Translations under genes and position numbers: made by a program
Sequence record: MW388002.1
DNA length: 64,000 bases
From: Acinetobacter phage Mokit
Reading direction: 5' to 3' (one strand)
The notes under the pieces: generated by a model
The model's input: only the letters and a program-made list of their open reading frames with translations
Told to the model about the DNA's origin: nothing
Databases searched by the model: none
Shown: positions 3,991 through 48,775 of the stretch, piece by piece
How positions within the stretch are numbered: the first letter of the stretch is position 1
How the letters are laid out: the number at the start of each line of letters is the position of its first letter

Positions 3991-3994
3991 AATA

Positions 3995-4055: not shown

Positions 4056-4060
4056 TTGTT

Positions 4061-5083: not shown

Positions 5084-5107
5084 ATATTTCTCCAATTAAT
5101 TTTGGGA

Positions 5108-5302
5108 TTAAAGAATTGTGATGGTGCGAGTAATTAAAATAGGGCCTACCTTTTTCGGGCAAAGGAGCTCTGAATTTGTTAACTTGTCAATGTAGAATGA
5201 TTTAATTTGTTCTGACTCAATTTCAATATCGACCGTTTCTTGGTGTACTGCAATGTGTCCTGATTCCATGTTTGTTGCTACAACTTCAACCAAGATTTTC
5301 AT
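5108..5302 (-). CDS. small hypothetical protein (64 aa)
   Basis: ORF between Rnl2 and the upstream gene, stop/start overlap typical of operon packing. Confidence 0.4.
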   Translation of the reverse strand: MKILVEVVATNMESGHIAVHQETVDIEIESEQIKSFYIDKLTNSELLCPKKVGPILITRTITIL

Positions 5303-5658
5303 TCTACCACTCCATAAATTGCAGATGTTGCACCATCAGTGTATGTATATAAAATAACTCGAATACCTCGAAGGAGGTTATTTTCAAGAGTGCTAAGATT
5401 TGCATCAGAGATATATGCATGTTTAAAGATGCCTTCATCTGATGCTTGATCGATTTCGCAAACTTTAAGAGGATTTTTTGCATACTTCTTAATAGATTGC
5501 TCATCATAATCTAAATCAAGATTTAGCAACTCGTTATATGTAGGGAAGCGTTTACGTGCTTCGATGATTAGTTTACGTTCATTAGGTGTCTTAGACAAAT
5601 TTGCGGCATCGTTAAAGACTTTGACTAAATTGTTGTAAATCGTTGCAGTGAGTTTCAT
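5299..5658 (-). CDS. hypothetical protein (119 aa from internal ATG)
   Basis: Track ORF overlaps gene 39 by 56 nt; internal ATG at 5658 follows GGAGAAAGAA RBS just after the gp39 stop. Confidence 0.5.
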   Translation of the reverse strand: MKLTATIYNNLVKVFNDAANLSKTPNERKLIIEARKRFPTYNELLNLDLDYDEQSIKKYAKNPLKVCEIDQASDEGIFKHAYISDANLSTLENNLLRGIRVILYTYTDGATSAIYGVVE

Positions 5659-5680
5659 TTCTTTCTCCAAAGGAGTCAGC

Positions 5681-22829: not shown

Positions 22830-23348
22830 TTAATAGCCATTGTTTTGACGATCAAAGTTTTCTTTATTTTTCAAGTAATACAACTCAAACATTTCTTCAG
22901 CTCGAATACCAAGAGCATTTGCCATGTTGAGAACGAAATGAATAATGTCGATGAATTCAAATTTAATTTCAAGTTGATCTTCGGGACTTAAATCAGAAAT
23001 CAAAGTATTACGCATTTCTAAGTTTTTAGAACGCCATGCTTTCCATACTGATGAAGCTGCATTTTCACCATTTGACATACCACCGAGAGATGTGAGCAAT
23101 TCACGAAACTCATCGTCAATTGAATCCTTTTGAGCACGCATCCAATCAACTACTTTGCCAGCAGTGTCTAAATTGCGAGGATCTTGATTCATTTCAGGTT
23201 TATCTTGAGCTAAACGAATCTGCAGACTATTTTGCATATCAAGCATTGTATCGAGGTACTGTTCGCCATTAAAACGTAAATCTTCTGCAACTTGACGAGC
23301 TGCATCGATACCATCAACTAACTGGGAGCATTGATTAAAGTGTGCCAT
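22830..23348 (-). CDS. 56: dCTP pyrophosphatase (gp56, MazG-like)
   Basis: MAHFNQCSQL...LDMQNSLQIRLA...DEFRELLTSLGGMSNGEN matches T4 gp56 N-terminus and length (172 aa). Confidence 0.75.
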   Translation of the reverse strand: MAHFNQCSQLVDGIDAARQVAEDLRFNGEQYLDTMLDMQNSLQIRLAQDKPEMNQDPRNLDTAGKVVDWMRAQKDSIDDEFRELLTSLGGMSNGENAASSVWKAWRSKNLEMRNTLISDLSPEDQLEIKFEFIDIIHFVLNMANALGIRAEEMFELYYLKNKENFDRQNNGY

Positions 23349-23632
23349 GTGTATTTCTCCAAAAGATTGGGTAGTAAATTTGATAAGGTAATTATAACAA
23401 ACAAATTTTAAAGCTTGTGTAACTCAAATCAGAATTTGATAATTTCTAGAACATTTAAATTTAATAAGTTTTCTAACCGTTTGATAAATTCTGACGCTAA
23501 GTTTTCATCGTCATGTACCAAAGATAGAGCCATTCGCCGTTTATGTGCCGAACACAAAATGCTTCATCATGCATATTTGTGTATGACACATTAAACAATT
23601 TGCACCATTGTATTAGTACAGTATCGAGTTGA

Positions 23633-31892: not shown

Positions 31893-32081
31893 TTATAACA
31901 AATTAAAGTGGCGAACAAAATGTTCAATTGCAATGTACCATGATATGGGCGGCAATACGATTGCACCGAAAGTCCACCAGAAGCCTTTTGCAAGGACAAT
32001 ACCTGTGATGTAAATTGCAAAAGCAAGTAAACTAGCTAATGTTCTCATGTGTTTCTCCAATGTTAGGTGAGTATGGCTCAA
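31893..32081 (-). CDS. small membrane protein (62 aa)
   Basis: hydrophobic ORF overlapping the next gene by 50 nt; true start uncertain. Confidence 0.3.
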   Translation of the reverse strand: MSHTHLTLEKHMRTLASLLAFAIYITGIVLAKGFWWTFGAIVLPPISWYIAIEHFVRHFNLL

Positions 32082-33015
32082 TTTTGCCGATTCTTAATGC
32101 ATATTTAAATTTATCTACATATGCTACATCATACATACGTACAATTATTTCATAGTTCTCCCATGCAAAGTCTCTGAACCAACCACTAGTAATAGATGTA
32201 CAAACCTTTTCTAATGCCATCAAGAAGCTTTTATATGGATCAACCTTAAAATCATTAGGAATTTGAGAACGTTCTAAAGCCAAAACATATGTCTCTTCTA
32301 AAACTCCGAGTAAACGAATATATTGTTCACATGCAAAGAATTTTTCTCTAGAACACTCAACTTCTGCATCAGTTGCCATATAATATGTGTATGCAGGTTT
32401 TTCCATTAACTTGACTGCTTCATGAATAGAGTCATGGTCATATACATAATTGAAATTTGAATTAAAGAATTCATTTTTCTTGACATTTAATTTGACATGG
32501 TCGTAATTATATGTTTCCGCTATTCGACGTTCAATCCATCCAGTATCCCATGGGTTTGCTCCTACTGCAGGCGAACGAAGATTACGAATGGTACGCATAG
32601 TCTTCAAAAAGTGAGGGCTATCTTTAAGAAATCGGTGGGACCACTTCAATGAATACAACATATCGATAGATGCAACTTTAAAATTGATACCATTGACAAC
32701 AATAGTTGGCAGTATATCACCAGCTGCGTAAAATGCAAGTTCATACGTTGTACAATCGACTGTTTCTGCATGAGTAATTTCAAAAATGACGCCATCGCAT
32801 TTGTATGCTCGAGTATACGTTTTGAACTTTGGTGAAGCAGCATTGAATACTAGCTTACACTCGGATGAGTCCTCTTTGAGGTATCGAATAACATCATCTG
32901 CATCTTTCTTAGTCGCACAAATAACGTCGATATCTTTAGGGTTAAGGTTATGTGGAATATTAAGCCAATCGAGCTGCTTAGCTAAAGCATATGAGCCAAT
33001 AATTAAAGGAATCAT
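32032..33015 (-). CDS. putative nucleotidyltransferase-fold (Pol-beta superfamily) protein, 327 aa
   Basis: N-terminal GSYALAKQLDWLNIPHNLNPKDIDVI fits the minimal NTase GS...D.D motif. Confidence 0.45.
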   Translation of the reverse strand: MIPLIIGSYALAKQLDWLNIPHNLNPKDIDVICATKKDADDVIRYLKEDSSECKLVFNAASPKFKTYTRAYKCDGVIFEITHAETVDCTTYELAFYAAGDILPTIVVNGINFKVASIDMLYSLKWSHRFLKDSPHFLKTMRTIRNLRSPAVGANPWDTGWIERRIAETYNYDHVKLNVKKNEFFNSNFNYVYDHDSIHEAVKLMEKPAYTYYMATDAEVECSREKFFACEQYIRLLGVLEETYVLALERSQIPNDFKVDPYKSFLMALEKVCTSITSGWFRDFAWENYEIIVRMYDVAYVDKFKYALRIGKIEPYSPNIGETHENIS

Positions 33016-35562: not shown

Positions 35563-35901
35563 TTAATATGTAAACATTTTCTTTTTACTTTTAATGTCAG
35601 CCATTTGCAATTGAATGATATACTCTACATGCTTTGTTAATTCATCCTTTCTGTCTTCGCTTGGCGTAGAAAAATCATATGAAACACTATTAGCATTTAT
35701 TGTAATATCATGGATATACACAATATGGTCTGATCCGTCTTCAAGCTTAATCAAGATTTCTTGTTTGACATCTTTCATTGCCTCTCTAATGATACCTAAA
35801 GACTTTTCGTATAGTGCTCCGGATGGGCCTCTGCTGTCATTAGCTGTATTAAGATCTTCATCGTTAGTGGACATATTTACTCCAGAAGTGCCTTTTCCCA
35901 T
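35563..35901 (-). CDS. hypothetical protein (112 aa; gene-40 position)
   Basis: ORF. Confidence 0.4.
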   Translation of the reverse strand: MGKGTSGVNMSTNDEDLNTANDSRGPSGALYEKSLGIIREAMKDVKQEILIKLEDGSDHIVYIHDITINANSVSYDFSTPSEDRKDELTKHVEYIIQLQMADIKSKKKMFTY

Positions 35902-36995
35902 AGTGCAAATACACGTTCAGGGCGGTATTGTTCGTATAATGCATTCGCACGATTTACTCGTTGTTCAAATGTATCGGTGAAATTATTTAACGCATCAGAA
36001 TAAGCTGCAATAATTTCCTCGGATGTCATACCGTCATCAATCCATACAACTTGTGTAGTTGGATCGTGTTCTAACGTGGCATGACTATAGCCTCGTTGAA
36101 TAAGTTGTAATACTGGAACACCCTTTTCAATCGCTTCCATTGAGCCATGTTCAATAGTACCGGTATCATGACAAGTATTTACAAGAACTAGTGCTTCTTT
36201 AATTGTATCTTGGATTGCTTTACGAGGTATATCCATATGCACAAAAGGCTCTTTAAGATATTTCTTTGGAGGTGCCCACTGTCTTGGCAAGAATGCAATA
36301 ATTTTATGTGGACAATGTTTCATTGCTTCTAATGCTACATTTGTCTTTCTAAATTTTAAGTCATACCGTTGAGCTTGTACTACATATCCCTTTGATGGCA
36401 AAACTTCTGGCGGATTCTCGATTAACGTAGCTGGAAAGAAATTATCAGAGATGATGTCATTCTTAGCCCAATAATCAAAATCAATGGCACCTACCGCTAA
36501 ACGTCTGTTCATTTTTGAATAAACTTTAGATGTCAAATCTTTAAAGGTTTGAGTAGGAACTAAATTTTTACCGCCATTCTGGTGAATGAATACCGCAGTG
36601 CGCCAAATAGAAACAAGTGTGCGAATTGTAGGGTCAAGTGGAGTGGCCAATAAATTTCGAATCTTTGGTCCAAGCCCTAGTTTAATTAAACCATTGATAA
36701 CACCTTTTGCTGCCTCTACAGTTACGATAGCATCGTATTGGGAGCAATCAAGTTCTGCAATTTTTTCAATGATCTTTTTACCATGTTTTACCGTATATTT
36801 GTCAACAATCGGATAGTCAATAGAGATTGGGTTTACTTTGTAAGGTCCAAATGTTTCATCGCCAAATGCAATATAATCAATTTGATGCTTCTTGCTCATC
36901 GTTTTGATAAAGTTCAATTGGACCGATTCAAGGCCACCTGAAATATAGTTGGCATTAAAAGTAATAAATCGACATGGAATGTATAAGATTTTCAT
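35877..36995 (-). CDS. glycosyltransferase, GT-B fold (GT4-like C-terminal motif); candidate hmC-DNA glycosyltransferase, paralog 1
   Basis: ...NTCHDTGTIEHGSMEAIEKGVPVLQL resembles the GT-B E(x7)E donor-binding motif; ~45% identical to the adjacent paralog; sits in the beta-gt position next to gene 42. Confidence 0.55.
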   Translation of the reverse strand: MKILYIPCRFITFNANYISGGLESVQLNFIKTMSKKHQIDYIAFGDETFGPYKVNPISIDYPIVDKYTVKHGKKIIEKIAELDCSQYDAIVTVEAAKGVINGLIKLGLGPKIRNLLATPLDPTIRTLVSIWRTAVFIHQNGGKNLVPTQTFKDLTSKVYSKMNRRLAVGAIDFDYWAKNDIISDNFFPATLIENPPEVLPSKGYVVQAQRYDLKFRKTNVALEAMKHCPHKIIAFLPRQWAPPKKYLKEPFVHMDIPRKAIQDTIKEALVLVNTCHDTGTIEHGSMEAIEKGVPVLQLIQRGYSHATLEHDPTTQVVWIDDGMTSEEIIAAYSDALNNFTDTFEQRVNRANALYEQYRPERVFALWEKALLE

Positions 36996-37025
36996 GTTTC
37001 ATCTCAAAGAAAGTGTAGTAGTATT

Positions 37026-37046
37026 TATGGAGCCCGAAGGCTCCAT
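37026..37046 (-). promoter_or_regulatory. GC hairpin between the two glycosyltransferase paralogs
   Basis: GGAGCC-CGAA-GGCTCC (minus strand GGAGCC-UUCG-GGCUCC). Confidence 0.4.
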
Positions 37047-37054
37047 TTTCAGAA

Positions 37055-38176
37055 TTATTTTAAAACAGCTTCCCAGAGCTTAAAGTACGCTTCTTCATTA
37101 AATTTCTTATAAAGATATTCTGCTCTTGCAACTCGTTGCTCATATGTATCTTCAAAATCATTTAATGCCTTGGCATATAACTCGATTAGTTCTTGAGTGC
37201 TTGCGCCTTCTTCAAATTCAACTCGAACAGTATTAGGGTCGTACTCAAATGTAGCATGGTTGTATCCTTTTTGAATTAGTTGAAGTACTGGCGTACCTTG
37301 TGAGATTGCCTCAAGTGAGCCATTCTCTACTGTGCCAGTGTTGTGGCAAGTATTAACAAGAAGTTTTGCTGTCGAAATTTCGGTTTGAACTGCTTGTCGT
37401 TTTGCATCAATAATTACCCAATGGTCTTGTTTGAGCCATTTCTTACCCGGAGCCCATTTAGAAGGACAAAAGGCAATCTTAGGACCATTGTATAATTCCA
37501 TTGCGCCGAATGCAACGCTTGATTTTCTAAACGTATTATCAAATCGTTGGGCTTGAACAATGTGTCCTTCAGATTCAAGAACTGTTGGGCGTTCGCTAAT
37601 AAGAATAGGTGGATAAAATTCATCCGCAATAATATCATTAGCTTGCCAGTAATCAAAATCAATAACTTCTGCAGCAATTCGTTCATTCATTTTTGAATAA
37701 ACATTTGCAGCTAAGTCTTTAAAGGTTTGAGTTGGGACAATATTTTTTCCACCTAGTTTATGAACCATCACTGCATTATTCCAACATTGAACAATACCTC
37801 GAACTGATGGATCAAGAGGTGTCGCAAGAATATTCCGAACTTTTGAAATTTGTCCAAGCTCGGCGAGCGTATTGAGGACCATTTTGCTACCTTCAATAAT
37901 TACAATAGCATCATATTGATCCCAGTCTGTAATTTCTTGAAGTTTGTATTTGATTTTATATGCATGGGCAGTTGTAAACTTGGCTCCAATCGGTTTGTCA
38001 ATAGATAATGTATTGACCTTTACGTCACCAAATTCTTCATCGCCAAATGCAACATAATCGATATCATGGACCTTAGACAAATTCACAATAAAATTATATT
38101 GAACTGCTTCAAGGCCGCCATCAACACGTTTAATGTTAAAAGGCACAGAACGACAAGGTAAGTATAAAATTTTCAT
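37055..38176 (-). CDS. glycosyltransferase, GT-B fold; paralog 2
   Basis: MKILYLPCRS... aligns from M9 of the track ORF with the paralog N-terminus (track M1 is TTG); TGTVENGSLEAISQGTPVLQL motif. Confidence 0.55.
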   Translation of the reverse strand: MKILYLPCRSVPFNIKRVDGGLEAVQYNFIVNLSKVHDIDYVAFGDEEFGDVKVNTLSIDKPIGAKFTTAHAYKIKYKLQEITDWDQYDAIVIIEGSKMVLNTLAELGQISKVRNILATPLDPSVRGIVQCWNNAVMVHKLGGKNIVPTQTFKDLAANVYSKMNERIAAEVIDFDYWQANDIIADEFYPPILISERPTVLESEGHIVQAQRFDNTFRKSSVAFGAMELYNGPKIAFCPSKWAPGKKWLKQDHWVIIDAKRQAVQTEISTAKLLVNTCHNTGTVENGSLEAISQGTPVLQLIQKGYNHATFEYDPNTVRVEFEEGASTQELIELYAKALNDFEDTYEQRVARAEYLYKKFNEEAYFKLWEAVLK

Positions 38177-38177
38177 A

Positions 38178-38720
38178 TTAAGGTCCAATAAATTCTTCAA
38201 TTTTTAAGTCTTCCATTACTTTTTCAAATGGAACGATATCGTTAATATTGTTGTACACATCATGGTCAAGAATTTGATATGGAGTTATTCCAAATTCATT
38301 GTACACGTCTTCAAATTTGTCAACAATTGCATTAAATTGTTCTTCACTAATCGAAATCAAATCATCTGCAAAGCTGTCATTAAGTTTATTACGTGTAAGA
38401 CCGACCACTAAGACATCATTTTGTTTGATGAATCTTTTGAAATCATCTTTGAAAATTTGGGTCGGTTTGCCACGAAGAACACTTTCATATACAATGTTAC
38501 TTAAACCGCCACGATCAAGAATATATGTTGTGTCACTATCAACAAATCTCAACATTGTTTCAAATATCGCAACTTCATTTCGAGATACACAAGTGAAACG
38601 ACCTTCACTTGTGCGTTTAGGAAATGGCATCAACACTGCAGGAGTGAATCGTTCTAGATTTGATATGAACGTAGTTTTGCCTGCATTGTCAGGACCTTCA
38701 ACTAAGATTAGTTTTGCCAT
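38178..38720 (-). CDS. P-loop nucleotide/nucleoside-monophosphate kinase-like protein
   Basis: Walker A ILVEGPDNAGKTT at the N-terminus; thymidylate-kinase-like size (180 aa). Confidence 0.5.
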   Translation of the reverse strand: MAKLILVEGPDNAGKTTFISNLERFTPAVLMPFPKRTSEGRFTCVSRNEVAIFETMLRFVDSDTTYILDRGGLSNIVYESVLRGKPTQIFKDDFKRFIKQNDVLVVGLTRNKLNDSFADDLISISEEQFNAIVDKFEDVYNEFGITPYQILDHDVYNNINDIVPFEKVMEDLKIEEFIGP

Positions 38721-39652
38721 ACATCACCTGTAATTAGAATATCATCAATCGTTGGTATATTATAATCACTAATAATGTTAGCATCGAAATAAATCAATTC
38801 ACCTAGTCCAGGATGAAACACATTATCTGGATTTTCATTGTAGATAATTGTGGGGTGCTGCGAAAGTACAATATAATATGAAACTTTATCTAGTTTGCAC
38901 TCCATGATCTCTAAGTCAGGGTACAATTCATCAAGCGTCGGTTTTTTATCAACAAATGTGTCATTAGGATCAGTAATGAGCAATATGTTCCCAGTTTCAG
39001 CACAAGTCTTGGCAACACTCATGAAATCATAACATGGATCAGATATTCTAAATGGAAAGAAAACCATGTTTGAATTGAGAGGCTGAATTTCAGAATAGTC
39101 AATACGATTAGTATAACGTTCAATTACACTTGGGTTAACCACTTTCTGGGAAACAGTGATTTTTTCCGCAGAAATGCCACTTGCAACAAATTCATCCTTT
39201 TGGTTTTGATTAAGTACAAATACTTTTATTGCAGATTGAGCACTTTCGAGATCTTTTTCCCACCACTTATCGATATACAATCGCGTCAATCCAGAAACTT
39301 TAGAAATATTAGCATTGAAAATAAATTCATGTGTACCGTTATATCCAGTGATGTCAGTAATCAATGTATCAAGATTGTATACTTTCATAATCTCATCAAC
39401 ATTTTCTTGATTCCATGTCCAGAACCAATGACGTGTTTCATCTGCATTGAAGCCATAATGAAATTGAACAAATTTGAAATCCGGGAACAAGTATGTCAAA
39501 TCGCCCATGTCAGAAATGTCAAAAGGCACTGCAATCAAATCACCTGGTTGTGCACGATGTAAATGCAATTGAAAGTTACCGTCCTTGAGGACGGAATACT
39601 TTCTTGTGCTATACGATCGCATCGAAAAAATTGGTACAATCATTCTAGCCAT
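38708..39652 (-). CDS. hypothetical protein (314 aa) within the DNA-modification cluster
   Basis: ORF between kinase and hydroxymethylase; no motif recognised. Confidence 0.45.
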   Translation of the reverse strand: MARMIVPIFSMRSYSTRKYSVLKDGNFQLHLHRAQPGDLIAVPFDISDMGDLTYLFPDFKFVQFHYGFNADETRHWFWTWNQENVDEIMKVYNLDTLITDITGYNGTHEFIFNANISKVSGLTRLYIDKWWEKDLESAQSAIKVFVLNQNQKDEFVASGISAEKITVSQKVVNPSVIERYTNRIDYSEIQPLNSNMVFFPFRISDPCYDFMSVAKTCAETGNILLITDPNDTFVDKKPTLDELYPDLEIMECKLDKVSYYIVLSQHPTIIYNENPDNVFHPGLGELIYFDANIISDYNIPTIDDILITGDVWQN

Positions 39653-39657
39653 ATCGT

Positions 39658-40362
39658 TTATCCTAAAAAGTTTTTAACGTAATCTAAATCACGTTCAAAT
39701 ACATGAGCAGAAACAATAGAATGTGCATAAGTGCCTAATTCAACATTGCATTCTTTTGAGATATATTCCATGAATCGATGCATCAAATAAAAATCAAGCT
39801 GCATAACTACTGCACAGTTTTGACTTCTCATATGTGTATGCATGTACAAACGTCCTTCACGAATATAAAAGGTAACAGAATCTGTACAAGGATATTCTAG
39901 TGATTCATCTGCATCTAAAAGCACTTGATCTTGCTCTTGCAGAATTTGAAAAACTACACGCCGTGAGTTCGGTTTTTCTTTAAGCTCTTTGATAAGGGCC
40001 GGTAACTGTGAAACAATTCGTGGGCCATAGAAGGTATTGAAATTTGCAGGTAAAGCATCCGTTTTCGGTTTCGCAATAAATTTCGCGACATTTGGATAGT
40101 CCTTAAACGCTTGTTCCGCATCTGTGCCACCTTGAATCATGAATTCCCAGAATTTTTCCGCATAACCATAATCAATACGATTAATATTTTTATCTTTGAA
40201 AACCGCACCGGTATCTGGAAGTGCTACTTCTAAAAGAATTGATCCGATTTCACGACATTTGCCAATACGAGAATCCGTGACAAATTCAGGTTCAGTAATC
40301 ACTAGATAATTGAGTCGCTTGAATGCTTCTTCAAATGTGCTAGCTAAAATATACTTTGGCAT
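39658..40362 (-). CDS. 42: dCMP hydroxymethylase (thymidylate-synthase-family pyrimidine hydroxymethylase, gp42-like)
   Basis: NSRRVVFQI, catalytic-Cys context YPCTDSVTFY and MHTHMRSQN correspond to T4 dCH motifs. Confidence 0.7.
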   Translation of the reverse strand: MPKYILASTFEEAFKRLNYLVITEPEFVTDSRIGKCREIGSILLEVALPDTGAVFKDKNINRIDYGYAEKFWEFMIQGGTDAEQAFKDYPNVAKFIAKPKTDALPANFNTFYGPRIVSQLPALIKELKEKPNSRRVVFQILQEQDQVLLDADESLEYPCTDSVTFYIREGRLYMHTHMRSQNCAVVMQLDFYLMHRFMEYISKECNVELGTYAHSIVSAHVFERDLDYVKNFLG

Positions 40363-40364
40363 TA

Positions 40365-40742
40365 TTACACCTCCGGTACGTATGGATGTTTAGATAATAA
40401 TTCATTATTACGAAAAGCGTCTTTGAATTCCTTAGGATTTAATGCTTTATCGTCAATGATCCAGTCATACACAGGTTTGTGTGTGAGTAATTGATGATAT
40501 TTCAGTTTAATTTTTTCAAGATTTTTAACTAATGCGGGCACAATAGCTCGGCTTATTGCATCTGAACCTACTGATGTCATGCCACGTGCAGTGAACAGTG
40601 TTATATGATGCCCTTGATCATATAACTCATTGATCATTGATACCATTTCAAGATCAGGTTTGAAATTTTCATAGTCACGACTATCATCCCAAAGAGTGAT
40701 AGTGTTATCTATGTCAAAACAAAATTGTTTTGGTCGAATCAT
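40365..40742 (-). CDS. HAD-superfamily phosphatase (DxDxT)
   Basis: FCFDIDNTIT motif I near the N-terminus; small cap-less HAD size. Confidence 0.55.
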   Translation of the reverse strand: MIRPKQFCFDIDNTITLWDDSRDYENFKPDLEMVSMINELYDQGHHITLFTARGMTSVGSDAISRAIVPALVKNLEKIKLKYHQLLTHKPVYDWIIDDKALNPKEFKDAFRNNELLSKHPYVPEV

Positions 40743-42412
40743 TGAATTTTCTCCCAGTGCATATCACCGATAAATTTCGAAGGGCGATATTTTTCACCTG
40801 TTTCAAGATCAGTTAATAGCCATTTGTCTGTATTTTTTGTAGATAGTACTGCATGAACTAATCCTGAATCATGAGCCACTGATCCATCTTTCAAACGACG
40901 TCCCATTTTATCAAGAGCAGTCGTTAACAAATACATACCGTAGTAGAATGCACTAACGGATTTCAATGGATTATTTTTGAAATATCCTGCAAGAGCAATC
41001 CAAATCACTGCAACCCAGAGATGATGGTATTCGTTAAAATATTTACTATGAAGAGATGTTACGCTTAATGGCTCGATATTGATCGTTGCAGCATTACCGT
41101 TGATGGCTAATCCACCCCACATATGATCTGAATTAAATTTATCATAACCTGATAATGCATAAAGCACTTTAGCTTCATCATAAATTCGCGGCCCATAGAT
41201 TTTTGTTTTGCCAAAATAGCCACGTGGATCAATTAGTCGAACTTCACCATTTTGATCAAGCATCAAATTACTAAAGTTTGGATCACCGTGAATAACGTAA
41301 TAGTCTTTGTCACTAGCCTCATATGTTAAATGCGCAAAGGCTTGATTTAACATTGTTTCTAAACGTCCAATTTTGACATTGTTTACATATTCGATGTCGC
41401 CAAATGATTTAATGACTCCTTTAATTTCATCACAACGGCTCATGACTTTGACAATGACCTCATATTGATAATCATTGATGATCTGTTCACGAGATGTAAA
41501 TTCTGGCATTTTATCAAATTTGAGAGTCTCGAGAATTTTCGGCAATAATTCTGGCGTATACACTTCAAACATCGGTTTGCCGATGATACGTTCCATTTTG
41601 AATGACATCATTTTGTCAGTTTCACGATGATCAAGAATTTTTGGCAATGCAGGGCTATCAACCTTTGCATACCATGCAAGTTCTTCTTTTTGCAATTGAC
41701 GTCCTTTTTCATTGATCGCCGCTTTATAAACGACACCTGAGGCCATAGTCACTTGGTTGAATTCACGATTAAGTTCACGATTACGATGTGCAATTTCAAG
41801 CTTAGGCTTGTCCCCTAAGTCAACTAAATTAAGCAAATAATCTTGATAAAACGCTTCATTTGTCGTGTCAATTAATTCAACAAAATCACGCCCTTTGAAG
41901 AACTCATTAGCTTCATCTTTATCTTTGATACGCGAAATAAAGAAATCACGATATTGATATACGCCTACAACGTTACCGCCTGTACCAACAATGTGTTCTT
42001 TCAAAGTTTTACCATTGTAGCTATATCGACATTCATCGCCAAAGGTATAGATTGCATTTGCATCCCATCGAAATGCATCAAAATCCGGGATGACATCACA
42101 CCAGTTAAAAACAACGTTGTGACCGTTGACATGATCTGCTAATCTAGAAATTGCATAAGCCGAACCATACGCTTCATCGACAGTTTCGACAACAATGTCA
42201 AGCCCGAACAACTTTGCATATTCTTTAACTTGTGAAGCAAACTTGCTATGAACAGCCACAATAATTTGTTCAGCACCAAGTCTAGTGTACAATGAATATA
42301 AATGATGCAAAATTGTGTGTTGCTTATAATTCACTAAGACTTTAGGAATATGATGGGTGATTGGATATAGGCGAGTTGCAAGTCCTGCACCTAAAATTAC
42401 GACTTTTTTCAT
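40739..42412 (-). CDS. bifunctional sugar-1-phosphate nucleotidylyltransferase (N-terminal) / APH-ChoK-family sugar kinase (C-terminal)
   Basis: MKKVVILGAGLATRL (G-x-G-x-R NTP-transferase motif); C-terminal VIHGDPNFSNLMLD...LIDPRG resembles aminoglycoside/choline-kinase catalytic loop. Confidence 0.6.
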   Translation of the reverse strand: MKKVVILGAGLATRLYPITHHIPKVLVNYKQHTILHHLYSLYTRLGAEQIIVAVHSKFASQVKEYAKLFGLDIVVETVDEAYGSAYAISRLADHVNGHNVVFNWCDVIPDFDAFRWDANAIYTFGDECRYSYNGKTLKEHIVGTGGNVVGVYQYRDFFISRIKDKDEANEFFKGRDFVELIDTTNEAFYQDYLLNLVDLGDKPKLEIAHRNRELNREFNQVTMASGVVYKAAINEKGRQLQKEELAWYAKVDSPALPKILDHRETDKMMSFKMERIIGKPMFEVYTPELLPKILETLKFDKMPEFTSREQIINDYQYEVIVKVMSRCDEIKGVIKSFGDIEYVNNVKIGRLETMLNQAFAHLTYEASDKDYYVIHGDPNFSNLMLDQNGEVRLIDPRGYFGKTKIYGPRIYDEAKVLYALSGYDKFNSDHMWGGLAINGNAATINIEPLSVTSLHSKYFNEYHHLWVAVIWIALAGYFKNNPLKSVSAFYYGMYLLTTALDKMGRRLKDGSVAHDSGLVHAVLSTKNTDKWLLTDLETGEKYRPSKFIGDMHWEKIQ

Positions 42413-42471
42413 ATTGTTTATTCCTAAGAAAGAACTATGACAATTATATCATAGTTCTTATGTAAAGTAAA

Positions 42472-43104
42472 TTATTTTGATTCAGATTTGAGCATTGCTC
42501 CAAGTGAACCACCTGGATGGTATGAATAAAAATCTTCACGAGTGAATCTAAGGTGTTTAGACAAAATTACACCAATAGTATCCAACAAAACCAATAGCAC
42601 TGTTGTACTTGTTGTGGGTGCAAGATGATTATCATCGCATTCGACAATGCCTGGAATACCAAATTCGATGTCAAATGGCGCCTTTTGTTCTTCAGTTAAC
42701 TGGCTATTGCAGTGCAACAAGATTTGAAGAACATTAGGACGAATAGTCTTCAAATGGCGCGCCATATATTGCATTTCTTCTGTTTTACCAGAACGCGAAA
42801 CATGAATAACTATGTCATCATGTCCGATAAATCCTGCATCGCCATGAGAATAATGGCACGTGTTCAAATACATAGACGGGATGCCAAGGCTTGCAAATGT
42901 TTCAGACGCCTTAGTTGCAAGATTTGAATTTTTACCTACGCCAGTAATCACGATGCGTTGACGATAGTTTGATGCTGCAACTACCTTTAGAATATCAATC
43001 ATGTTTGAATATTTGTCGCCATTTACCGCGATAGCAGTATGAAGATAATCTAATGCATCATTTTGATCTTCAACTACTTTTAATGCTAAATCGATGTTAT
43101 CCAT
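42472..43104 (-). CDS. SIS-domain sugar-phosphate isomerase (GmhA/KdsD-like)
   Basis: IVITGVGKNSNLATKASETFASLGIPS ... IVIHVSRSGKTEE typical of SIS phosphosugar isomerases. Confidence 0.6.
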   Translation of the reverse strand: MDNIDLALKVVEDQNDALDYLHTAIAVNGDKYSNMIDILKVVAASNYRQRIVITGVGKNSNLATKASETFASLGIPSMYLNTCHYSHGDAGFIGHDDIVIHVSRSGKTEEMQYMARHLKTIRPNVLQILLHCNSQLTEEQKAPFDIEFGIPGIVECDDNHLAPTTSTTVLLVLLDTIGVILSKHLRFTREDFYSYHPGGSLGAMLKSESK

Positions 43105-43144: not shown

Positions 43145-43468
43145 TTATTGTGTTAGCATAGATCTGCTAACAGTAAAAGTTATTTTAGCCTGGAACCAAT
43201 CACGTCCGATTTCTTGTTCAGGTTCAAATCCAACTTGCATTTGGGTGCGTCCCATCGCAACGTATTCCCTAGAAATGAATTCATACATTTCCTTGAGTGT
43301 GGATTCCGTCATTGAAGTAGCGCTATGTGTTCGTTGCCAGGAATCTGAGTCCGGACGTTCCGTGATATCTCGTGCCAAGAGAGTTTCCATTGCTTCAATA
43401 ATAGGTGCTACTTCTTCAACATTAGTGAAACGAGGTGTCTTTTTCAGCAGTTCTTTGAAATCAATCAT
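43145..43468 (-). CDS. hypothetical protein
   Basis: 107 aa ORF. Confidence 0.45.
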   Translation of the reverse strand: MIDFKELLKKTPRFTNVEEVAPIIEAMETLLARDITERPDSDSWQRTHSATSMTESTLKEMYEFISREYVAMGRTQMQVGFEPEQEIGRDWFQAKITFTVSRSMLTQ

Positions 43469-43781
43469 TTAAAAGACCTTCTAATGCAAAAATACATTTA
43501 TCAAATTTGGACATCACTATGCTTACAGTTTCTGAATCTACAGGCCCGTCTCGAGTGATGTCAGACCACAAGAAGCTAAATATTAAATCAGGGTCATTGT
43601 CTTGTGCCCATCCACTAGTATAAACTCTAACATCAGCCCAATCTACATGAGGTGAATATGAATAGAATGCATCAATGCCCTTTTTACTCAATGATATGCA
43701 TAGTGAAAGGATTTTATGATGTTTATCATTGATTTGCTCATTGATAAAATCAACGTCAACATAATCTTCATCGATTTCCAT
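43461..43781 (-). CDS. hypothetical protein
   Basis: 106 aa ORF. Confidence 0.45.
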   Translation of the reverse strand: MEIDEDYVDVDFINEQINDKHHKILSLCISLSKKGIDAFYSYSPHVDWADVRVYTSGWAQDNDPDLIFSFLWSDITRDGPVDSETVSIVMSKFDKCIFALEGLLND

Positions 43782-44233
43782 TAGTACAAGTTCTCCGAAT
43801 AAAGAGTTCCGCCTTTAGATGTATCACCACCTACACGACAAACAATTTGCTGTTGCTCTGCTGCAATTTTCCAAGCTTCTTGGCGATTAACAAATCGATG
43901 TTTATTTGTTAAGAATCCTTGTACTTCTGTTTCACGATATAGAATTGTTTCACCACTATTGTGTCCAACAAATGACGAATACATCACATCACATGCATGG
44001 CGAACACCTGCAATTACAACTTTGTTTCCATTGTGATCTGTGTACTGGTTTGCAGCACAAACAATACGTTCAGGTACAATATGCATTCGGCCTTCAGGCA
44101 ATTTGTTAATATCATATTTAGGCAAATCAGTCAATTCTTCACATTTCCGTTGCCATGCCATGTTTGCATGTGCCAAATGATTAACTTCAAATTCATGTAC
44201 CTGTTTTAATTTTGAAACTTCTGCTTCAGTCAT
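43781..44233 (-). CDS. hypothetical protein (150 aa)
   Basis: ORF. Confidence 0.45.
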   Translation of the reverse strand: MTEAEVSKLKQVHEFEVNHLAHANMAWQRKCEELTDLPKYDINKLPEGRMHIVPERIVCAANQYTDHNGNKVVIAGVRHACDVMYSSFVGHNSGETILYRETEVQGFLTNKHRFVNRQEAWKIAAEQQQIVCRVGGDTSKGGTLYSENLY

Positions 44234-44234
44234 T

Positions 44235-44588
44235 TTATTTGACTCCCATGCATGTATCTAATAATGTACGATAGTGTTTTGAATTAAGATAGCCAAACCG
44301 GAAAACAGTCTCATCGATTGCCATTTGGCGACAAATCTGAACTGCGATAACTTCTGGTGAAATTTGCGGTTTGTTTCGTAGTTGTTCCATCACAGGGCGT
44401 TCAGATTCAACAGCCACATCAATATGTTGTTGCATAAGGCGTCGATGATTACGAATGTCTTCATCTAGAGCCTGTTGCCGAGCGTATTCTTTTTCAATGC
44501 ATTTAGTATCCCATTTGTAGCATCCAGGTACAGCAGCATTAACGGATGATAAAAATGATATGCCTAAAATTAAAAATAAATTCTTCAT
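44235..44588 (-). CDS. secreted/periplasmic hypothetical protein (signal peptide)
   Basis: N-terminal MKNLFLILGISFLSSVNAA signal sequence. Confidence 0.45.
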   Translation of the reverse strand: MKNLFLILGISFLSSVNAAVPGCYKWDTKCIEKEYARQQALDEDIRNHRRLMQQHIDVAVESERPVMEQLRNKPQISPEVIAVQICRQMAIDETVFRFGYLNSKHYRTLLDTCMGVK

Positions 44589-44881
44589 TAGATTGCTCCA
44601 ACAATATTTGCAATGAGCGCAAGATCTGCAACTCCAGCAACTGCTACTATTGCAAGTAAGAATAACGCAAATGCAATAGATTTAATAGTGTTCATTACAC
44701 CAATAGAGATTGCTGCAACAATGAATGCAATAAAGGTTGTTACTCCCATTGTAAAGAATCCTAATAAATTTAGAATTACTACTGCTACCATAATTGCAGT
44801 AGAGCTCTTATAATATGCTGCCATCACAATAGGGAACAATGATAAAAATATCGCTATAATACTTCCAAGGAGTAAGCTCAT
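44588..44881 (-). CDS. small polytopic membrane protein (97 aa; imm-region position)
   Basis: almost entirely hydrophobic; located between 42 and 43 where T4 carries imm. Confidence 0.45.
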   Translation of the reverse strand: MSLLLGSIIAIFLSLFPIVMAAYYKSSTAIMVAVVILNLLGFFTMGVTTFIAFIVAAISIGVMNTIKSIAFALFLLAIVAVAGVADLALIANIVGAI

Positions 44882-45186
44882 GATTCTTCTCCCACTAGTA
44901 AAATTAATTCAGTTTTAGTATTAAGTGATTGGTCAATAGGATGACAAGTGTTTTCCCAATTTCGTACAACGTCTTGGACTTCTGCAACAATTTCATATGT
45001 TGAGCCGAGCAGGCTATCCCAGTCTTCGCTGCAACGATTTGGATATTCATCAAAAACACTAATTACACCATTACGATCAACAGCTACACATGTTGCCCAT
45101 GATGGAATAGCTACTGAAGCCGATTCACGTTCTTCGCCTTTAATGAGAGTAATTTCTAAAGCATGCGGTCGATAATTAATTTTCAT
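44878..45186 (-). CDS. hypothetical protein
   Basis: 102 aa ORF. Confidence 0.45.
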   Translation of the reverse strand: MKINYRPHALEITLIKGEERESASVAIPSWATCVAVDRNGVISVFDEYPNRCSEDWDSLLGSTYEIVAEVQDVVRNWENTCHPIDQSLNTKTELILLVGEES

Positions 45187-45814: not shown

Positions 45815-47044
45815 TTAAAAATCGAACATATCCATCAACGATGAACGTTTTTCTGCTTGCATACCTGCAGATTCACACATACCTTCAAGAGGCTTTTTGT
45901 ATGTTTTACCAAATAAGTCCATGACATCCATATGCTTTAGAACATCTGCACGAATTTCTTTAGGCAATTCATTACCTGATGGCCATGCAATACACTTGTC
46001 ACCAAATGGATTTCCAGGTTTAAGAGGCAAGATCATTACCTTTTCGCCTTCTGAAATATCTGGCAAGTTATCGTATTTCTTAATTGCACGTCGGTATGTA
46101 AGAACACCACGAACATGACTTGGACATTTAAGACCCGGGAATCCATTCACATCATATTTTGCAATATTATTTGCAGAACGAACACCAGCAATTACTTTAT
46201 AATCAAGATTTCTGAATTCGTTTTCAAATTTCTTGAAATACTCTTGTAATGGTTTTTCACCTTCTTGGAGCATAATACGAATACTTTCTAACAATGCATC
46301 TTTGACCGCTTTAGGCGTTGATGATTGTTGAGTTTCCATGCCCATGATTTTTAAGTATGGCTCTTTGAAACGTGTACCTTCCATGTCATAGACATTAAGT
46401 GCATATCGTTTCTTGGCACGCCAGAATCCGCCGATGCCGTTAGAACCAAGTGGTGGGCATGCAATAGCTTCACGATCCATAAACATCAATTGTTCATAGT
46501 TGTTGAGATATTCACACATCTCTTTAAACCCATCATTAATAACTGGTTCGATTTTCTTCGAAGCTACTGCATCTAAAAAGTCAACAAGCTTTTCAGTCGA
46601 TGAGAATTTATCGATGCCAACTTTTTCGATTAATGGGCTTAGTTCGATATACAATGAGTCAGTATCGCCATAAATAACATAAGGGTGATCTGTAGTTCCA
46701 CATAGTTCGTTTAAGTATGCATTAATCTTTCGTTCAGTCCATTGAAGAACCATTTGCCCAAAGATTGTAATAGCTTCAGCATTTCTAAGATCGTAAAATC
46801 TAAAATAGATGTTACCGAGTGCGCCATATAAACTGTTAATTAATAGCTTTCGGTTAATTTGATTTGTATCACATAAAGTGATGTAATTTTCACATTGTGT
46901 TTCAAGTGCATTGAGTTCTTCTTGTGAAAGAGATTTGAGATATTCAATTTCACTTTCGGTGAAGTCTCGACTAAAATCAAGATTCATATAATCTCCAAAG
47001 ATAGGGTTTATTGACTCAAATGGGATATGATAACATTTTATCAT
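45815..47044 (-). CDS. 43: DNA polymerase gp43, C-terminal part (43B: palm motifs B/C, thumb)
   Basis: KLLINSLYGALGN (motif B), YGDTDSLYI (motif C), C-terminus ...MDMFDF align with T4 gp43 residues ~480-898; an alternative ATG at 46987 has a stronger RBS (TGGAGATTAT). Confidence 0.85.
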   Translation of the reverse strand: MIKCYHIPFESINPIFGDYMNLDFSRDFTESEIEYLKSLSQEELNALETQCENYITLCDTNQINRKLLINSLYGALGNIYFRFYDLRNAEAITIFGQMVLQWTERKINAYLNELCGTTDHPYVIYGDTDSLYIELSPLIEKVGIDKFSSTEKLVDFLDAVASKKIEPVINDGFKEMCEYLNNYEQLMFMDREAIACPPLGSNGIGGFWRAKKRYALNVYDMEGTRFKEPYLKIMGMETQQSSTPKAVKDALLESIRIMLQEGEKPLQEYFKKFENEFRNLDYKVIAGVRSANNIAKYDVNGFPGLKCPSHVRGVLTYRRAIKKYDNLPDISEGEKVMILPLKPGNPFGDKCIAWPSGNELPKEIRADVLKHMDVMDLFGKTYKKPLEGMCESAGMQAEKRSSLMDMFDF

Positions 47045-47086
47045 ATCCCTGATATAAGCTTAGCGGTAACTAAGTTGTAACACTAA

Positions 47087-47284
47087 TTAGAACATTGCGT
47101 TGACAAGCTCAGAACCTGCAGCTAAAGGATTCTTGAACATCAATGCACCAGTAACGAACCCAACAATGAACAACAATGGGATGCATATACCTACACCTAC
47201 AACAACCCGATACCATAATGCGGCAGTTTCAGAAAAATTTTCTGCATTCTCATTAGCAATACGAATTTGACTAAAAATATTCAT
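47087..47284 (-). CDS. small membrane protein in the 43A/43B intervening segment
   Basis: 65 aa hydrophobic ORF. Confidence 0.35.
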   Translation of the reverse strand: MNIFSQIRIANENAENFSETAALWYRVVVGVGICIPLLFIVGFVTGALMFKNPLAAGSELVNAMF

Positions 47285-47598
47285 AGGCCTATCTCCCTAA
47301 AACATTGAAATAATAAACGATTTATTTCCAATTCTTTGCGAACAGATTCATTCATTAACTGTATGACTGTATTAATATCTGATTGGCTGGAGCAGCGTGC
47401 ATTGAGCACAGTTTCTGCATTTTTACGACACATGTCAAATGTATTAAAATATCCTGAATAGCGAGGCAATGTGATGGCTTCAAGGACATTAGGCATCCAT
47501 GAAAGGTGGAACTTTTCATCAATTTCGCCTATAGTAAATAGTGTTGTTTGACAACCTTGAATTTCATCAAACTCTTCAATGGATTTATATACTCTCAT
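47281..47598 (-). CDS. hypothetical protein in the intervening segment
   Basis: 105 aa ORF. Confidence 0.4.
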   Translation of the reverse strand: MRVYKSIEEFDEIQGCQTTLFTIGEIDEKFHLSWMPNVLEAITLPRYSGYFNTFDMCRKNAETVLNARCSSQSDINTVIQLMNESVRKELEINRLLFQCFREIGL

Positions 47599-47909
47599 TT
47601 ATTTAACACCAGTCTAAATTCAGGAAATCTAGCTTCACACTCACGAGAAGCCATTTCAAAAATATTCATAATATCATATATAGTTGAAGGAGTATTTGGC
47701 AAGCCAATAATACTATTCAATCCATTAGTAACAAAATCATTTATAAATGAAATTATATCTTCACCATCTTTAAATTTCAATGCTTTATGAATAAATTCAG
47801 CGGATAGTTCAGCATTACAAGTACCATTATAATGAATTGCACTTAATGGCCACACATTAATAAATGTTTCTCCTTCAGGAGTGATTATTACATCTCTTTC
47901 AATATTCAT
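47595..47909 (-). CDS. hypothetical protein whose 5' leader is GC-element copy 2
   Basis: 104 aa ORF; ATG 47909 lies ~20 nt downstream of the conserved element. Confidence 0.45.
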   Translation of the reverse strand: MNIERDVIITPEGETFINVWPLSAIHYNGTCNAELSAEFIHKALKFKDGEDIISFINDFVTNGLNSIIGLPNTPSTIYDIMNIFEMASRECEARFPEFRLVLNK

Positions 47910-48041
47910 ATCATACTCGACAATATTCAGATTTCGGCGCGAAGCGCCGGCTGCGCAGCAGCTATTCTAGTCCAACGGAACGGCTAAATTTAGAGCGGTG
48001 AACCGGTAGAACCATTATAACACAAAAAATTCGTAAAGCAT
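47910..48041 (-). promoter_or_regulatory. MotA-box-like promoter plus structured GC-rich 5' leader (repeat element copy 2)
   Basis: minus strand: aTGCTTTAcgaattttttgtgtTATAATggttctacc then blocks A/B of the element (47931-48013), 20-nt divergent core 47965-47984. Confidence 0.4.
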
Positions 48042-48078
48042 GTGTGTGCTTTACGAATGTAGATTAATTAATAGACAC

Positions 48079-48303
48079 TTAATTTTTATCGTATAGTTCC
48101 TTTATACACATTGATTTATATTCTAAAACTTCGGTGGCAGTCATAAACGCCATATCCTTTTCACTCTGCGTGTTCCGAGATTTAATTTGAACCAATGTAT
48201 TATGATCTATATTTACTCTAGGTACACAATCTCTGCGAACACCTGGTGTTATGATTTCACAAGGAAATTTTTCTACTATTTCTTTAATCATTTCATATGT
48301 CAT
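48079..48303 (-). CDS. small hypothetical protein in the intervening segment
   Basis: 74 aa ORF. Confidence 0.4.
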   Translation of the reverse strand: MTYEMIKEIVEKFPCEIITPGVRRDCVPRVNIDHNTLVQIKSRNTQSEKDMAFMTATEVLEYKSMCIKELYDKN

Positions 48304-48382
48304 AATGAATTCCTCTGATTTATAAGAATGATTATATCATAATCAAAAAGCAAAGTAAACAAATTTTAGAGAAAAAGAAAGG

Positions 48383-48402
48383 GACCGAAGTCCCTTATGA
48401 AA
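48383..48402 (-). promoter_or_regulatory. UUCG-loop hairpin
   Basis: minus strand GGGAC-UUCG-GUCCC. Confidence 0.4.
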
Positions 48403-48414
48403 GATATATAAGTT

Positions 48415-48705
48415 TTAAACGATACTATACATTGTTACTGCGATCGGAAGAATTTCATTTGTCAGAGCTTTAAGATTTTCTTCAGTGATTTTAGTATCTT
48501 GGAAACGATGAACAATACGTTCAATTTCAACTACCTTTTGTTTATTTGTTTCACGATCACGTGGATCAATTACTAATTTAATATTGCTGCCTTTAAATTC
48601 TAGAGCAAGAATGCCTAATGTAATTTTTGCATCCATTGAACGAGTAGAACGAGTGTCAATTACTGGAGCTGCTGTGTTAAATGCTAATTTAGATTGAGTG
48701 ATCAT
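48415..48705 (-). CDS. hypothetical protein (96 aa from internal ATG) in the intervening segment
   Basis: ATG 48705 just downstream of PeSL promoter ~48720-48775; track start lies inside the promoter. Confidence 0.4.
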   Translation of the reverse strand: MITQSKLAFNTAAPVIDTRSTRSMDAKITLGILALEFKGSNIKLVIDPRDRETNKQKVVEIERIVHRFQDTKITEENLKALTNEILPIAVTMYSIV

Positions 48706-48719
48706 AATATACTTCTCTG

Positions 48720-48775
48720 TAGTTGATAGGACTATTATAACAATAGTCCTATCAAAAGTAAACATTTATTTGATT
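48720..48775 (-). promoter_or_regulatory. PeSL-type early promoter (stem gataggac/gtcctatc) upstream of the 43A/43B-intervening ORFs
   Basis: gttgataggactattataacaatagtcctatcaaaagtaaacattt. Confidence 0.5.

Follow-up and report, generated by a model that had tools for sequence, protein, structure and literature searches.

A predicted arabinosyl-5-hydroxycytosine DNA hypermodification cluster in the T4-like Acinetobacter phage Mokit

Which base is modified, and with which sugar, when a T4-like phage carries its own genes for the activation of a sugar next to a gene for the synthesis of an unusual nucleotide? This question is raised by a region of 7.2 kb (positions 35877 to 43104) in a stretch of 64,000 nucleotides from Acinetobacter phage Mokit (MW388002.1, genus Hadassahvirus); the complete stretch is referred to as the window. 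The region contains eight co-oriented open reading frames (ORFs) on the minus strand with abutting or overlapping frames (Table 1), flanked by the genes for the gene 41 helicase and the gene 40 chaperone on one side and by the gene for the DNA polymerase (gene 43) on the other side. An original prediction made from the sequence alone had listed these eight genes as a cluster for hypermodification of hydroxymethylcytosine (hmC) with a phage-made nucleotide sugar. All eight ORFs were confirmed with unchanged boundaries, except for the start of the glycosyltransferase (GT) gene GT_B, which is the ATG at position 38176 (373 aa) and not the TTG at 38200; GenBank (Melin_077) has the same start, and it fits the length of DLP3 gp77.

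The region is very probably an arabinosyl-5-hydroxycytosine (Ara-5hoC) DNA hypermodification cluster. This identification is based on orthology, an active-site signature, matches to solved structures, and fold prediction. The cluster region is 100% identical to that of Acinetobacter phage Melin (MW388003.1), and the eight ORFs correspond to the GenBank coding sequences CPT_Melin_076 to CPT_Melin_083. Elsewhere, the nucleotide identity of the block is 95.5% to Maestro, about 94% to AbTZA1 and AB-Navy71, and about 78% to the Lazarusvirus group including DLP3, and at least 80% of the block was covered in 50 of the 56 matching phage records. All eight proteins share 96.8 to 99.2% of their amino acids with those of Maestro. 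DLP3 gp76 to gp83 are one-to-one reciprocal best matches of the eight ORFs with conserved order and strand and amino acid identities of 70.7 to 91.4%, and six HY126 proteins are orthologous to window proteins at 48 to 72%. This is the full Ara-5hoC gene set in its conserved order: isomerase, kinase-nucleotidyltransferase (NTase), phosphatase, hydroxylase, first GT, thymidylate-kinase-like (TMK-like) kinase, and distal GTs. The orthology to the DLP3 arabinosylation cluster supports the idea of a phage-made nucleotide sugar that feeds DNA glycosyltransferases, and the HY126 orthologs show that RB69-type phages possess these genes as well, a point which the original prediction could not decide. 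The novelty implied by that prediction did not hold, however: the chemistry of the cluster and most of its enzymology are already known and were published in 2025 and 2026 for DLP3, RB69, HY126, and Maestro.

The thymidylate synthase homolog and the modified base

The identity of the base depends on the thymidylate synthase (TS) homolog of the cluster (Pfam Thymidylat_synt, 1.9e-14). It was aligned with E. coli ThyA, T4 gp42, DLP3 gp80, and the HY126 enzyme, and all residue numbers are those of E. coli ThyA. The catalytic C146 is kept, as are R166 and S167. The TS homolog carries D169N and W80A, as do DLP3 gp80 and the HY126 enzyme, whereas T4 gp42 and ThyA retain D169 and W80. Two other exchanges, N177D and L143E, which likewise occur in DLP3 gp80 and the HY126 enzyme, are dCMP-type substitutions that are also present in T4 gp42-type enzymes. 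In the alignment, the identity was 87.6% to DLP3 gp80 and 71.5% to the HY126 enzyme but only about 20% to T4 gp42. A tblastn search gave the same picture, with about 70% identity to the Mosigvirus, HY126, and Thanatos enzymes and at most 25% to genuine phage dCMP hydroxymethylases. The best matches in PDB were 9iqc, 9iqu, and 9ir2 (about 1e-110). The titles of these entries read “Thymidylate synthase” only; the 9iqc chain has 238 aa, equal to the length of the HY126 TS homolog, and this agreement suggests that the three entries belong to the HY126 study.

The relatives of this protein have been characterized biochemically. DLP3 gp80 and RB69 gp48 were found by Lee et al. (NAR 2026, PMC13326640) to be flavin-binding enzymes that convert dCMP to 5-hydroxy-dCMP (5hodCMP) with incorporation of 18O from O2. 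Binding of flavin mononucleotide (FMN) and use of O2 were demonstrated with RB69 gp48, and the HY126 enzyme is cited for the same properties; D169N was proposed as a diagnostic residue and was shown to predict the activity correctly in nine further homologs (PMC13326640). Because the TS homolog of Mokit possesses the D169N signature and 71.5% identity to the HY126 enzyme versus about 20% to T4 gp42, the base is read as 5-hydroxycytosine. By its residues, the TS homolog is an FMN-dependent-type dCMP 5-hydroxylase and not a gene 42-type hydroxymethylase, which means that the predicted site of sugar attachment is 5-hydroxycytosine via an ether bond and not hmC.

The structure of the modified base is known from related phages. 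In DLP3 DNA, dC is fully replaced by 5-hydroxy-dC (5hodC) that carries beta-D-Araf-(1-5)-beta-D-Araf-(1-3)-alpha-D-Araf (Araf, arabinofuranose) in ether linkage at C5, as demonstrated by tandem mass spectrometry (MS/MS), nuclear magnetic resonance (NMR), and gas chromatography-mass spectrometry, and RB69 DNA contains mono- and di-arabinosides (PMC13326640). For arabinosylated 5hodC in Maestro DNA, PMC13326640 refers to Mahler et al. 2025. More than one sugar per base, as anticipated for Mokit from the presence of two GTs, is consequently in line with the tri-arabinoside of DLP3 and the di-arabinoside of RB69.

Activation and transfer of the sugar

Four enzymatic activities encoded by three genes should produce the activated sugar. 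The SIS protein contains a Pfam SIS domain and matched KpsF/GutQ (5.9e-31), KdsD (2.2e-27), and also GutQ in NCBIfam, and it belongs to PHROG 5670 (“arabinose 5-phosphate isomerase”). Its matches in PDB were the arabinose-5-phosphate isomerase structures 5uqi (3.4e-27), 3etn, and 2xhz. The motifs GVGKN, HGDAG, SRSGKTEE, PTTS, and HPGGSLG are intact, with GxGK, HGDxG, SxSGxTxE, and HPGGxLG at residues 55, 87, 103, and 196, respectively. With 210 aa, only the SIS part aligns, without the tandem CBS domains of KdsD and GutQ, and the scores are below the curated cut-offs for full-length proteins; the single-domain proteins of 5uqi and 3etn have the most similar architecture. GmhA was absent among the NCBIfam and PDB matches of the SIS protein.

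The 557-aa protein combines a Pfam NTP_transferase match (7.3e-9, residues 3 to 100) with APH-like matches (residues 351 to 406). The NTase motifs GAGLATR and PK are intact, as are those of the kinase, the Brenner motif HGDPNFSN at residue 375 and IDPR at residue 394. Its matches in PDB were 1jyk and UGPases, and a weak HddC-like match in NCBIfam (6e-7, far under the cut-off) was one among many to sugar-1-phosphate NTases. The HAD protein matched weakly in Pfam but strongly to PDB 9iqw (1.1e-44) and also to 1xpj, and it was assigned to capsule biosynthesis phosphatase/HAD-IIIA in NCBIfam. Its DxDxT motif is present as DIDNT (residues 10 to 14), followed by TAR (residue 51) and K...DD (residues 89 to 98). 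The catalytic motifs of isomerase, kinase, NTase, and phosphatase are consequently all intact.

A route via ribulose-5-phosphate (Ru5P), arabinose-5-phosphate (Ara5P, by the isomerase), arabinose-1,5-bisphosphate (Ara-1,5-P2, by the kinase), and arabinose-1-phosphate (Ara-1-P, by the HAD phosphatase) to UDP-Araf (by the NTase) has been proposed in PMC13326640. As cited there, the steps of the kinase/NTase AfhE and the phosphatase AfhF were shown biochemically for HY126. The original prediction had left the choice between biosynthesis of a nucleotide-activated (NDP) heptose and an Ara5P-type route. The second part stood, including a logic similar to that of GmhA/HldE/GmhB on different folds. 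The NDP-heptose route was rejected, because the SIS protein belongs to the KdsD/KpsF type, GmhA is missing from its match lists, and the kinase domain is of the APH type.

Concerning the transfer of the sugar, GT_A and GT_B are paralogs with 55.7% identity. A Pfam scan found nothing for these two proteins or for the 314-aa protein. The AlphaFold model of GT_A (pLDDT 86.8) shows a GT-B fold, and its top matches in Foldseek were 9ir0 and 9iqz, “phage HY126 glycosyltransferase (with UDP),” with TM scores of 0.86 to 0.88 and about 40% identity. BshA and other GT4-type enzymes ranked next. GT_B belongs to PHROG 8302 and, judging by its identity to GT_A, should share the GT-B fold. For the 314-aa protein, sequence searches in Pfam, NCBIfam, and PDB gave no matches, but its AF2 model (pLDDT 95) also shows a GT-B fold. 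Its top Foldseek neighbours were all UDP-binding GT-B enzymes with TM scores of 0.5 to 0.6, namely UDP-GlcNAc 2-epimerases and MshA (3c4q, TM score 0.61). The two paralogous GT-B proteins of the original prediction were thus found as such, but its “314-aa unknown” has to be added to them: according to the models, the cluster holds three GT-B-fold proteins, all predicted glycosyltransferases, and not two. The 314-aa protein is proposed to be the first (alpha) arabinosyltransferase on 5-hydroxycytosine, as the role of gp79-type first transferases is likewise proposed, not demonstrated, in PMC13326640. As for the orthologs of the paralogous pair, DLP3 gp76 and gp77 jointly add, with UDP-Araf, a third arabinose to RB69 DNA in vitro (PMC13326640).

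The number of distal transferases differs between groups of phages. Members of the GT_A/GT_B family were found by tblastn in two copies in each Acinetobacter phage and in one copy, with about 41% identity and located near rIIA, in Mosigviruses. A word-indexed protein search (9 clusters) had limited the family to Acinetobacter phages; this result was discarded as an artefact of low sensitivity, since tblastn and Foldseek find the Mosigvirus homologs. The copy number tracks the number of sugars, two copies occurring with the tri-arabinosyl modification (DLP3) and one with the di-arabinosyl modification (RB69; chemistry from PMC13326640). Because distal-transferase copy number tracks glycan length, Mokit is expected, by analogy, to carry a tri-arabinoside, and this is likely. 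Comparison with the Mosigvirus enzyme gave no signal that would assign the second- or the third-arabinose step to one of the paralogs (42% versus 43% identity; 20 versus 21 diagnostic columns). The Mosigvirus enzyme is equidistant from GT_A and GT_B; therefore, the duplication should be later than the split.

One difference between the paralogs is fixed. Both Glu residues of the GT4-type E-x7-E motif are kept in GT_A and its orthologs (EHGSMEAIE), and the second Glu is replaced by Ser in GT_B, its orthologs, and the single-copy enzyme of Mosigviruses (ENGSLEAIS). This difference may relate to non-redundant roles of the two proteins.

Proposed pathway and alternative explanations

To understand how these proteins may act together, the predicted functions can be combined into a pathway. 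A dCTP pyrophosphatase (dCTPase) encoded outside of the cluster would remove dCTP and supply dCMP, which the TS-superfamily enzyme would hydroxylate at C5 with flavin and O2 to 5hodCMP. Kinases would raise 5hodCMP to the triphosphate, and the phage polymerase would incorporate it in place of dC. In parallel, the SIS isomerase would convert host Ru5P to D-Ara5P, the C-terminal APH-type kinase domain of the 557-aa protein would phosphorylate C1 to yield Ara-1,5-P2, the HAD phosphatase would strip the 5-phosphate to yield Ara-1-P, and the N-terminal NTase domain would use Ara-1-P and UTP to form UDP-Araf. The 314-aa GT-B protein would then add the first (alpha) arabinose to the 5-hydroxyl group in an ether link, and GT_A and GT_B would extend it to the di- and subsequently to the tri-arabinoside. 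The bulky glycan would block restriction enzymes and DNA-targeting CRISPR nucleases, so that the anti-restriction purpose assumed in the original prediction is judged to be right. In close relatives, the base structure, the hydroxylase, AfhE and AfhF, and the third arabinose that depends on gp76 plus gp77 have been demonstrated; for Mokit, all steps are inferred.

Evaluation of this pathway needs to consider several points that weigh against it. Purified GTs, when assayed singly, showed no activity on 5hoC-DNA, and the first transfer was not reconstituted (PMC13326640). In RB69, phosphorylation of 5hodCMP is already accomplished by a gp1-type dNMP kinase (PMC13326640), which leaves the TMK-like kinase without a step. 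The three arabinoses of Mokit are an extrapolation from DLP3 and from the gene content, and the results for Maestro and HY126 rest on the second-hand account in PMC13326640. Finally, TH1_063 of phage Thanatos (300 aa, GT fold) was reported to be a UDP-xylose pyrophosphorylase in vitro (PMC12838424). From its size and fold, TH1_063 is presumed to be an ortholog of the 314-aa protein; a pyrophosphorylase activity is at odds with the GT-B fold and with the proposed role as first arabinosyltransferase.

Two of these points lead to the alternative that survives best, which concerns the order of the steps and centers on the TMK-like protein. This protein possesses the P-loop GPDNAGKT and a DRG motif, belongs to PHROG 761 (thymidylate kinase, 2.7e-29), and gave weak dTMP-kinase matches in Pfam and NCBIfam. 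A sequence search against PDB gave spurious matches only and no solved close homolog. From its motifs, it is probably a nucleotide kinase for modified dCMP. In the alternative, the 314-aa protein would glycosylate 5hodCMP, the TMK-like kinase would phosphorylate (Ara-)5hodCMP, the polymerase would insert the glycosylated nucleotide, and only sugars 2 and 3 would be added on DNA. The TMK-like protein would thereby obtain the step that the gp1-type dNMP kinase otherwise leaves it without, and the inactivity of the single GTs on 5hoC-DNA would be explained; the authors of PMC13326640 cannot place the first arabinosylation on the mononucleotide or on DNA.

The distribution of the genes also agrees with a functional connection. 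The hydroxylase (341 phage records, at least 60% identity), the 314-aa protein (349), and the TMK-like kinase (345) have near-identical distributions, so that this triad is co-inherited in about 345 phage genomes, and the genes for the TMK-like and the 314-aa protein overlap by 13 nt. In Rhizobium phage P10VF (positions 3950 to 6405), which belongs to another phage family, Pootjesviridae, and uses another sugar, the triad occurs with its order unchanged. There, the TS homolog carries D169N/N177D/L143E, the adjoining 314-aa homolog is 24% identical (E 3e-8), and the match of the kinase is weak and covers the P-loop only (E 0.002). This points to a sugar-independent core module of hydroxylase, 314-aa protein, and TMK-like protein.

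On the other hand, all known T-even glycosylations are post-replicative, co-expression of hydroxylase and dNMP kinase puts unglycosylated 5hodC into DNA (PMC13326640), and the absent in vitro activity may simply indicate an inactive protein. A pre-replicative first transfer is consequently unlikely, although it would, if true, set this type of DNA glycosylation apart from every T-even paradigm. Transfer of all three sugars to 5-hydroxycytosine in DNA is preferred.

Much less probable is the possibility raised by the original prediction itself, that hmC is formed by a dCMP hydroxymethylase of the gene 42 type and then receives an unusual sugar, arabinose or a heptose. The enzyme is labeled “dCMP hydroxymethylase” in the GenBank records of Melin and Maestro, N177D and L143E are common to it and the T4 gp42-type enzymes, and arabinosyl-hmC had been reported for RB69 (Thomas et al. 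2018, PMC6024577). This assignment was subsequently corrected by MS and NMR (PMC13326640), and an independent Mosigvirus study confirmed the ether-linked structure and termed the older RB69 arabinosyl-hmC assignment erroneous (PMC13390438). D169N and W80A separate the TS homolog from T4 gp42 and group it with the 5hodCMP-producing enzymes (PMC13326640), the identity to genuine hydroxymethylases is low when compared to that to the hydroxylases, and the heptose variant lacks a GmhA match of the SIS protein. The hydroxymethylase and hmC as acceptor had to be abandoned.

Still harder to believe is that the sugar genes are auxiliary metabolic genes for a non-DNA substrate (capsule or lipopolysaccharide, e.g., Kdo) and only chance neighbours of the nucleotide genes, as database names such as “capsule biosynthesis phosphatase,” “kpsF,” and “capsular polysaccharide biosynthesis protein” and the PHROG category “moron, auxiliary metabolic gene” for isomerase and phosphatase might indicate: the genes are co-oriented and closely packed between gene 40 and gene 43, with frames that overlap or abut, and this block is kept in 50 of 56 related records; UDP-arabinose is the product of the HY126 orthologs, and DLP3 gp76 plus gp77 use UDP-Araf as the donor for their reaction on DNA, both according to the account in PMC13326640, and arabinofuranose is present on the DNA itself (PMC13326640).

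Neighbouring features, annotation, and comparison with known systems

Table 1. Predicted genes of the cluster and the dCTP pyrophosphatase gene in the window. Identities are those of the amino acid sequences.
Feature	Coordinates	Strand	Orthologs (identity)	Basis
GT_A, predicted GT-B arabinosyltransferase, 372 aa	35877..36995	-	DLP3 gp76 (83.6%)	Model, Foldseek, orthology
GT_B, putative GT-B-fold arabinosyltransferase, 373 aa	37055..38176	-	DLP3 gp77 (91.4%)	55.7% identity to GT_A, orthology
Thymidylate-kinase-like P-loop protein	38178..38720	-	DLP3 gp78 (73.2%)	Motifs, PHROG 761
314-aa GT-B-fold protein, proposed first (alpha) arabinosyltransferase	38708..39652	-	DLP3 gp79 (70.7%)	Model, Foldseek
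TS-superfamily dCMP 5-hydroxylase, predicted 5hodCMP synthase	39658..40362	-	DLP3 gp80 (87.6%)	Signature, homology
Small HAD phosphatase (predicted)	40365..40742	-	DLP3 gp81 (82.4%), HY126 AfhF (about 60%)	PDB match, motifs
557-aa NTase/APH-type kinase (predicted bifunctional)	40739..42412	-	DLP3 gp82 (75.2%), HY126 AfhE (about 55%)	Pfam, motifs
Single-domain SIS arabinose-5-phosphate isomerase (predicted)	42472..43104	-	DLP3 gp83 (79.3%)	Pfam, NCBIfam, PDB, motifs
dCTP pyrophosphatase, T4 gp56-type, outside of the cluster	22854..23372	-		GenBank annotation of Melin_048 only, homology to T4 NP_049646

The dCTPase listed in Table 1 is counted as part of the pathway in DLP3 and RB69 (PMC13326640, Table 1); a Pfam scan of the Mokit protein gave no match. 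Scans of the cluster for promoters and terminators were not informative, with 38 promoter-like sites versus 36.7 expected from shuffled sequences, which is not above chance, and 2 terminator-like sites versus 4.5 expected. On the minus strand, the best sigma-70-like match within the region lies in the gap of 59 bp between the isomerase and the kinase-NTase gene (positions 42413 to 42471). It reads TTTACT-17-TATAAT, has a TG-extended −10 motif (positions 42471 to 42443), and comes from a scan that was at chance overall; a terminator is annotated at the equivalent of this gap in related records. The isomerase gene may be transcribed apart from the other seven genes of the cluster.

Outside of the cluster, a Pfam scan of six small flanking ORFs (positions 43145 to 45186) gave no matches. 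The DNA polymerase gene is present in two pieces on the minus strand (positions 45815 to 50274), an N-terminal ORF (48766 to 50274, 502 aa), which is closed by a stop codon, and a C-terminal ORF (45815 to 47044, 409 aa), which has an ATG of its own. Between them, about 1.7 kb contain five small ORFs that possess ribosome-binding sites, a terminator is annotated there, and the GenBank label is “intron interrupted.” A permissive Rfam scan of positions 46800 to 49200 found no intron family, and the arrangement resembles a self-splicing intron less than a split gene for two polypeptides. Just upstream of the replication genes (positions 32032 to 33015, minus strand), a protein of 327 aa is encoded that contains DUF7277 and DUF7275 domains (2.3e-70).

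Many proteins of the cluster are mislabeled in the databases. In addition to the “dCMP hydroxymethylase” label of the hydroxylase, the distal arabinosyltransferases are named “DNA alpha-glucosyltransferase,” the family of the HAD phosphatase is named “phosphoheptose isomerase” (PHROG 1238 and many records) or “polynucleotide kinase,” and most of the neighbours are “hypothetical.” The value of the present analysis is the correction of these labels, not a discovery; the wrong labels occur in Melin, in Maestro, and in many therapeutic Acinetobacter phages related to them. The DNA of such phages is predicted to be resistant to most type II restriction enzymes and to DNA-targeting CRISPR nucleases, to cause problems in sequencing and cloning, and possibly to be sensitive to modification-dependent nucleases, which bears on phage therapy.

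The closest systems differ from that of Mokit mainly by degree. Maestro belongs to the same genus, and practically nothing is different at the protein level. In DLP3, all eight genes recur between gene 40 and gene 43 with unchanged order and orientation, and the hydroxylase signature and the paralogous pair of distal transferases are shared as well. DLP3 is, however, a Lazarusvirus and not a Hadassahvirus, and divergence is greatest for the 314-aa protein and the TMK-like kinase (71 to 73% identity). HY126 and RB69 share orthologs of the isomerase, AfhE, AfhF, the hydroxylase, the 314-aa GT, and the TMK-like kinase; of the solved structures, 9iqc/9iqu/9ir2 and 9iqw have sequence matches among the window proteins, and the fold of the GT_A model matches 9iqz/9ir0. 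Mosigviruses differ by their single distal transferase far away from the cluster, by mono- and di-arabinosides as products, and by an extra 386-aa cluster gene that is absent in the window cluster, whereas the Acinetobacter phages have a tandem duplicate of the distal transferase, with the tri-arabinoside as product in DLP3.

T4 has the same neighbourhood, from genes 41/40 to gene 43, and there, too, a TS-superfamily enzyme modifies dCMP and GT-B enzymes glycosylate. T4 gp42 and the TS homolog share N177D, and both have an acidic residue in position 143. T4 gp42, however, retains D169 and W80 and adds CH2OH from methylene-tetrahydrofolate, and T4 uses host UDP-glucose and has no sugar-activation genes; its neighbourhood contains b-gt and gene 42, followed by imm, imm.1, and gene 43. 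The contrast drawn in the original prediction, with b-gt as the gene beside gene 42 in T4, was checked and holds. T4 beta-GT is a distant, fold-level match of GT_A (rank 37, TM score 0.44).

The GmhA/HldE/GmhB system follows the same logic of a ketose-phosphate isomerase, an anomeric kinase that yields a bisphosphate, a phosphatase for the distal phosphate, and an NTase, with kinase and NTase being fused. In contrast, the predicted pathway of the cluster would use a pentose, its SIS protein is from the KdsD/KpsF branch, the kinase is APH/choline-kinase-like and not ribokinase-like, and the NTase is GlmU/RmlA-like, with the domain order NTase-kinase. The hexosyl-5-hydroxycytosine module of the Pootjesviridae RL38J1 and P10VF contains, in the same order as in Mokit, a D169N hydroxylase, a homolog of the 314-aa protein, and a TMK-like protein; it differs by an amino acid identity of only 20 to 32%, by the absence of genes for isomerase, kinase-NTase, and phosphatase, and by the use of galactose and glucose instead of arabinose.

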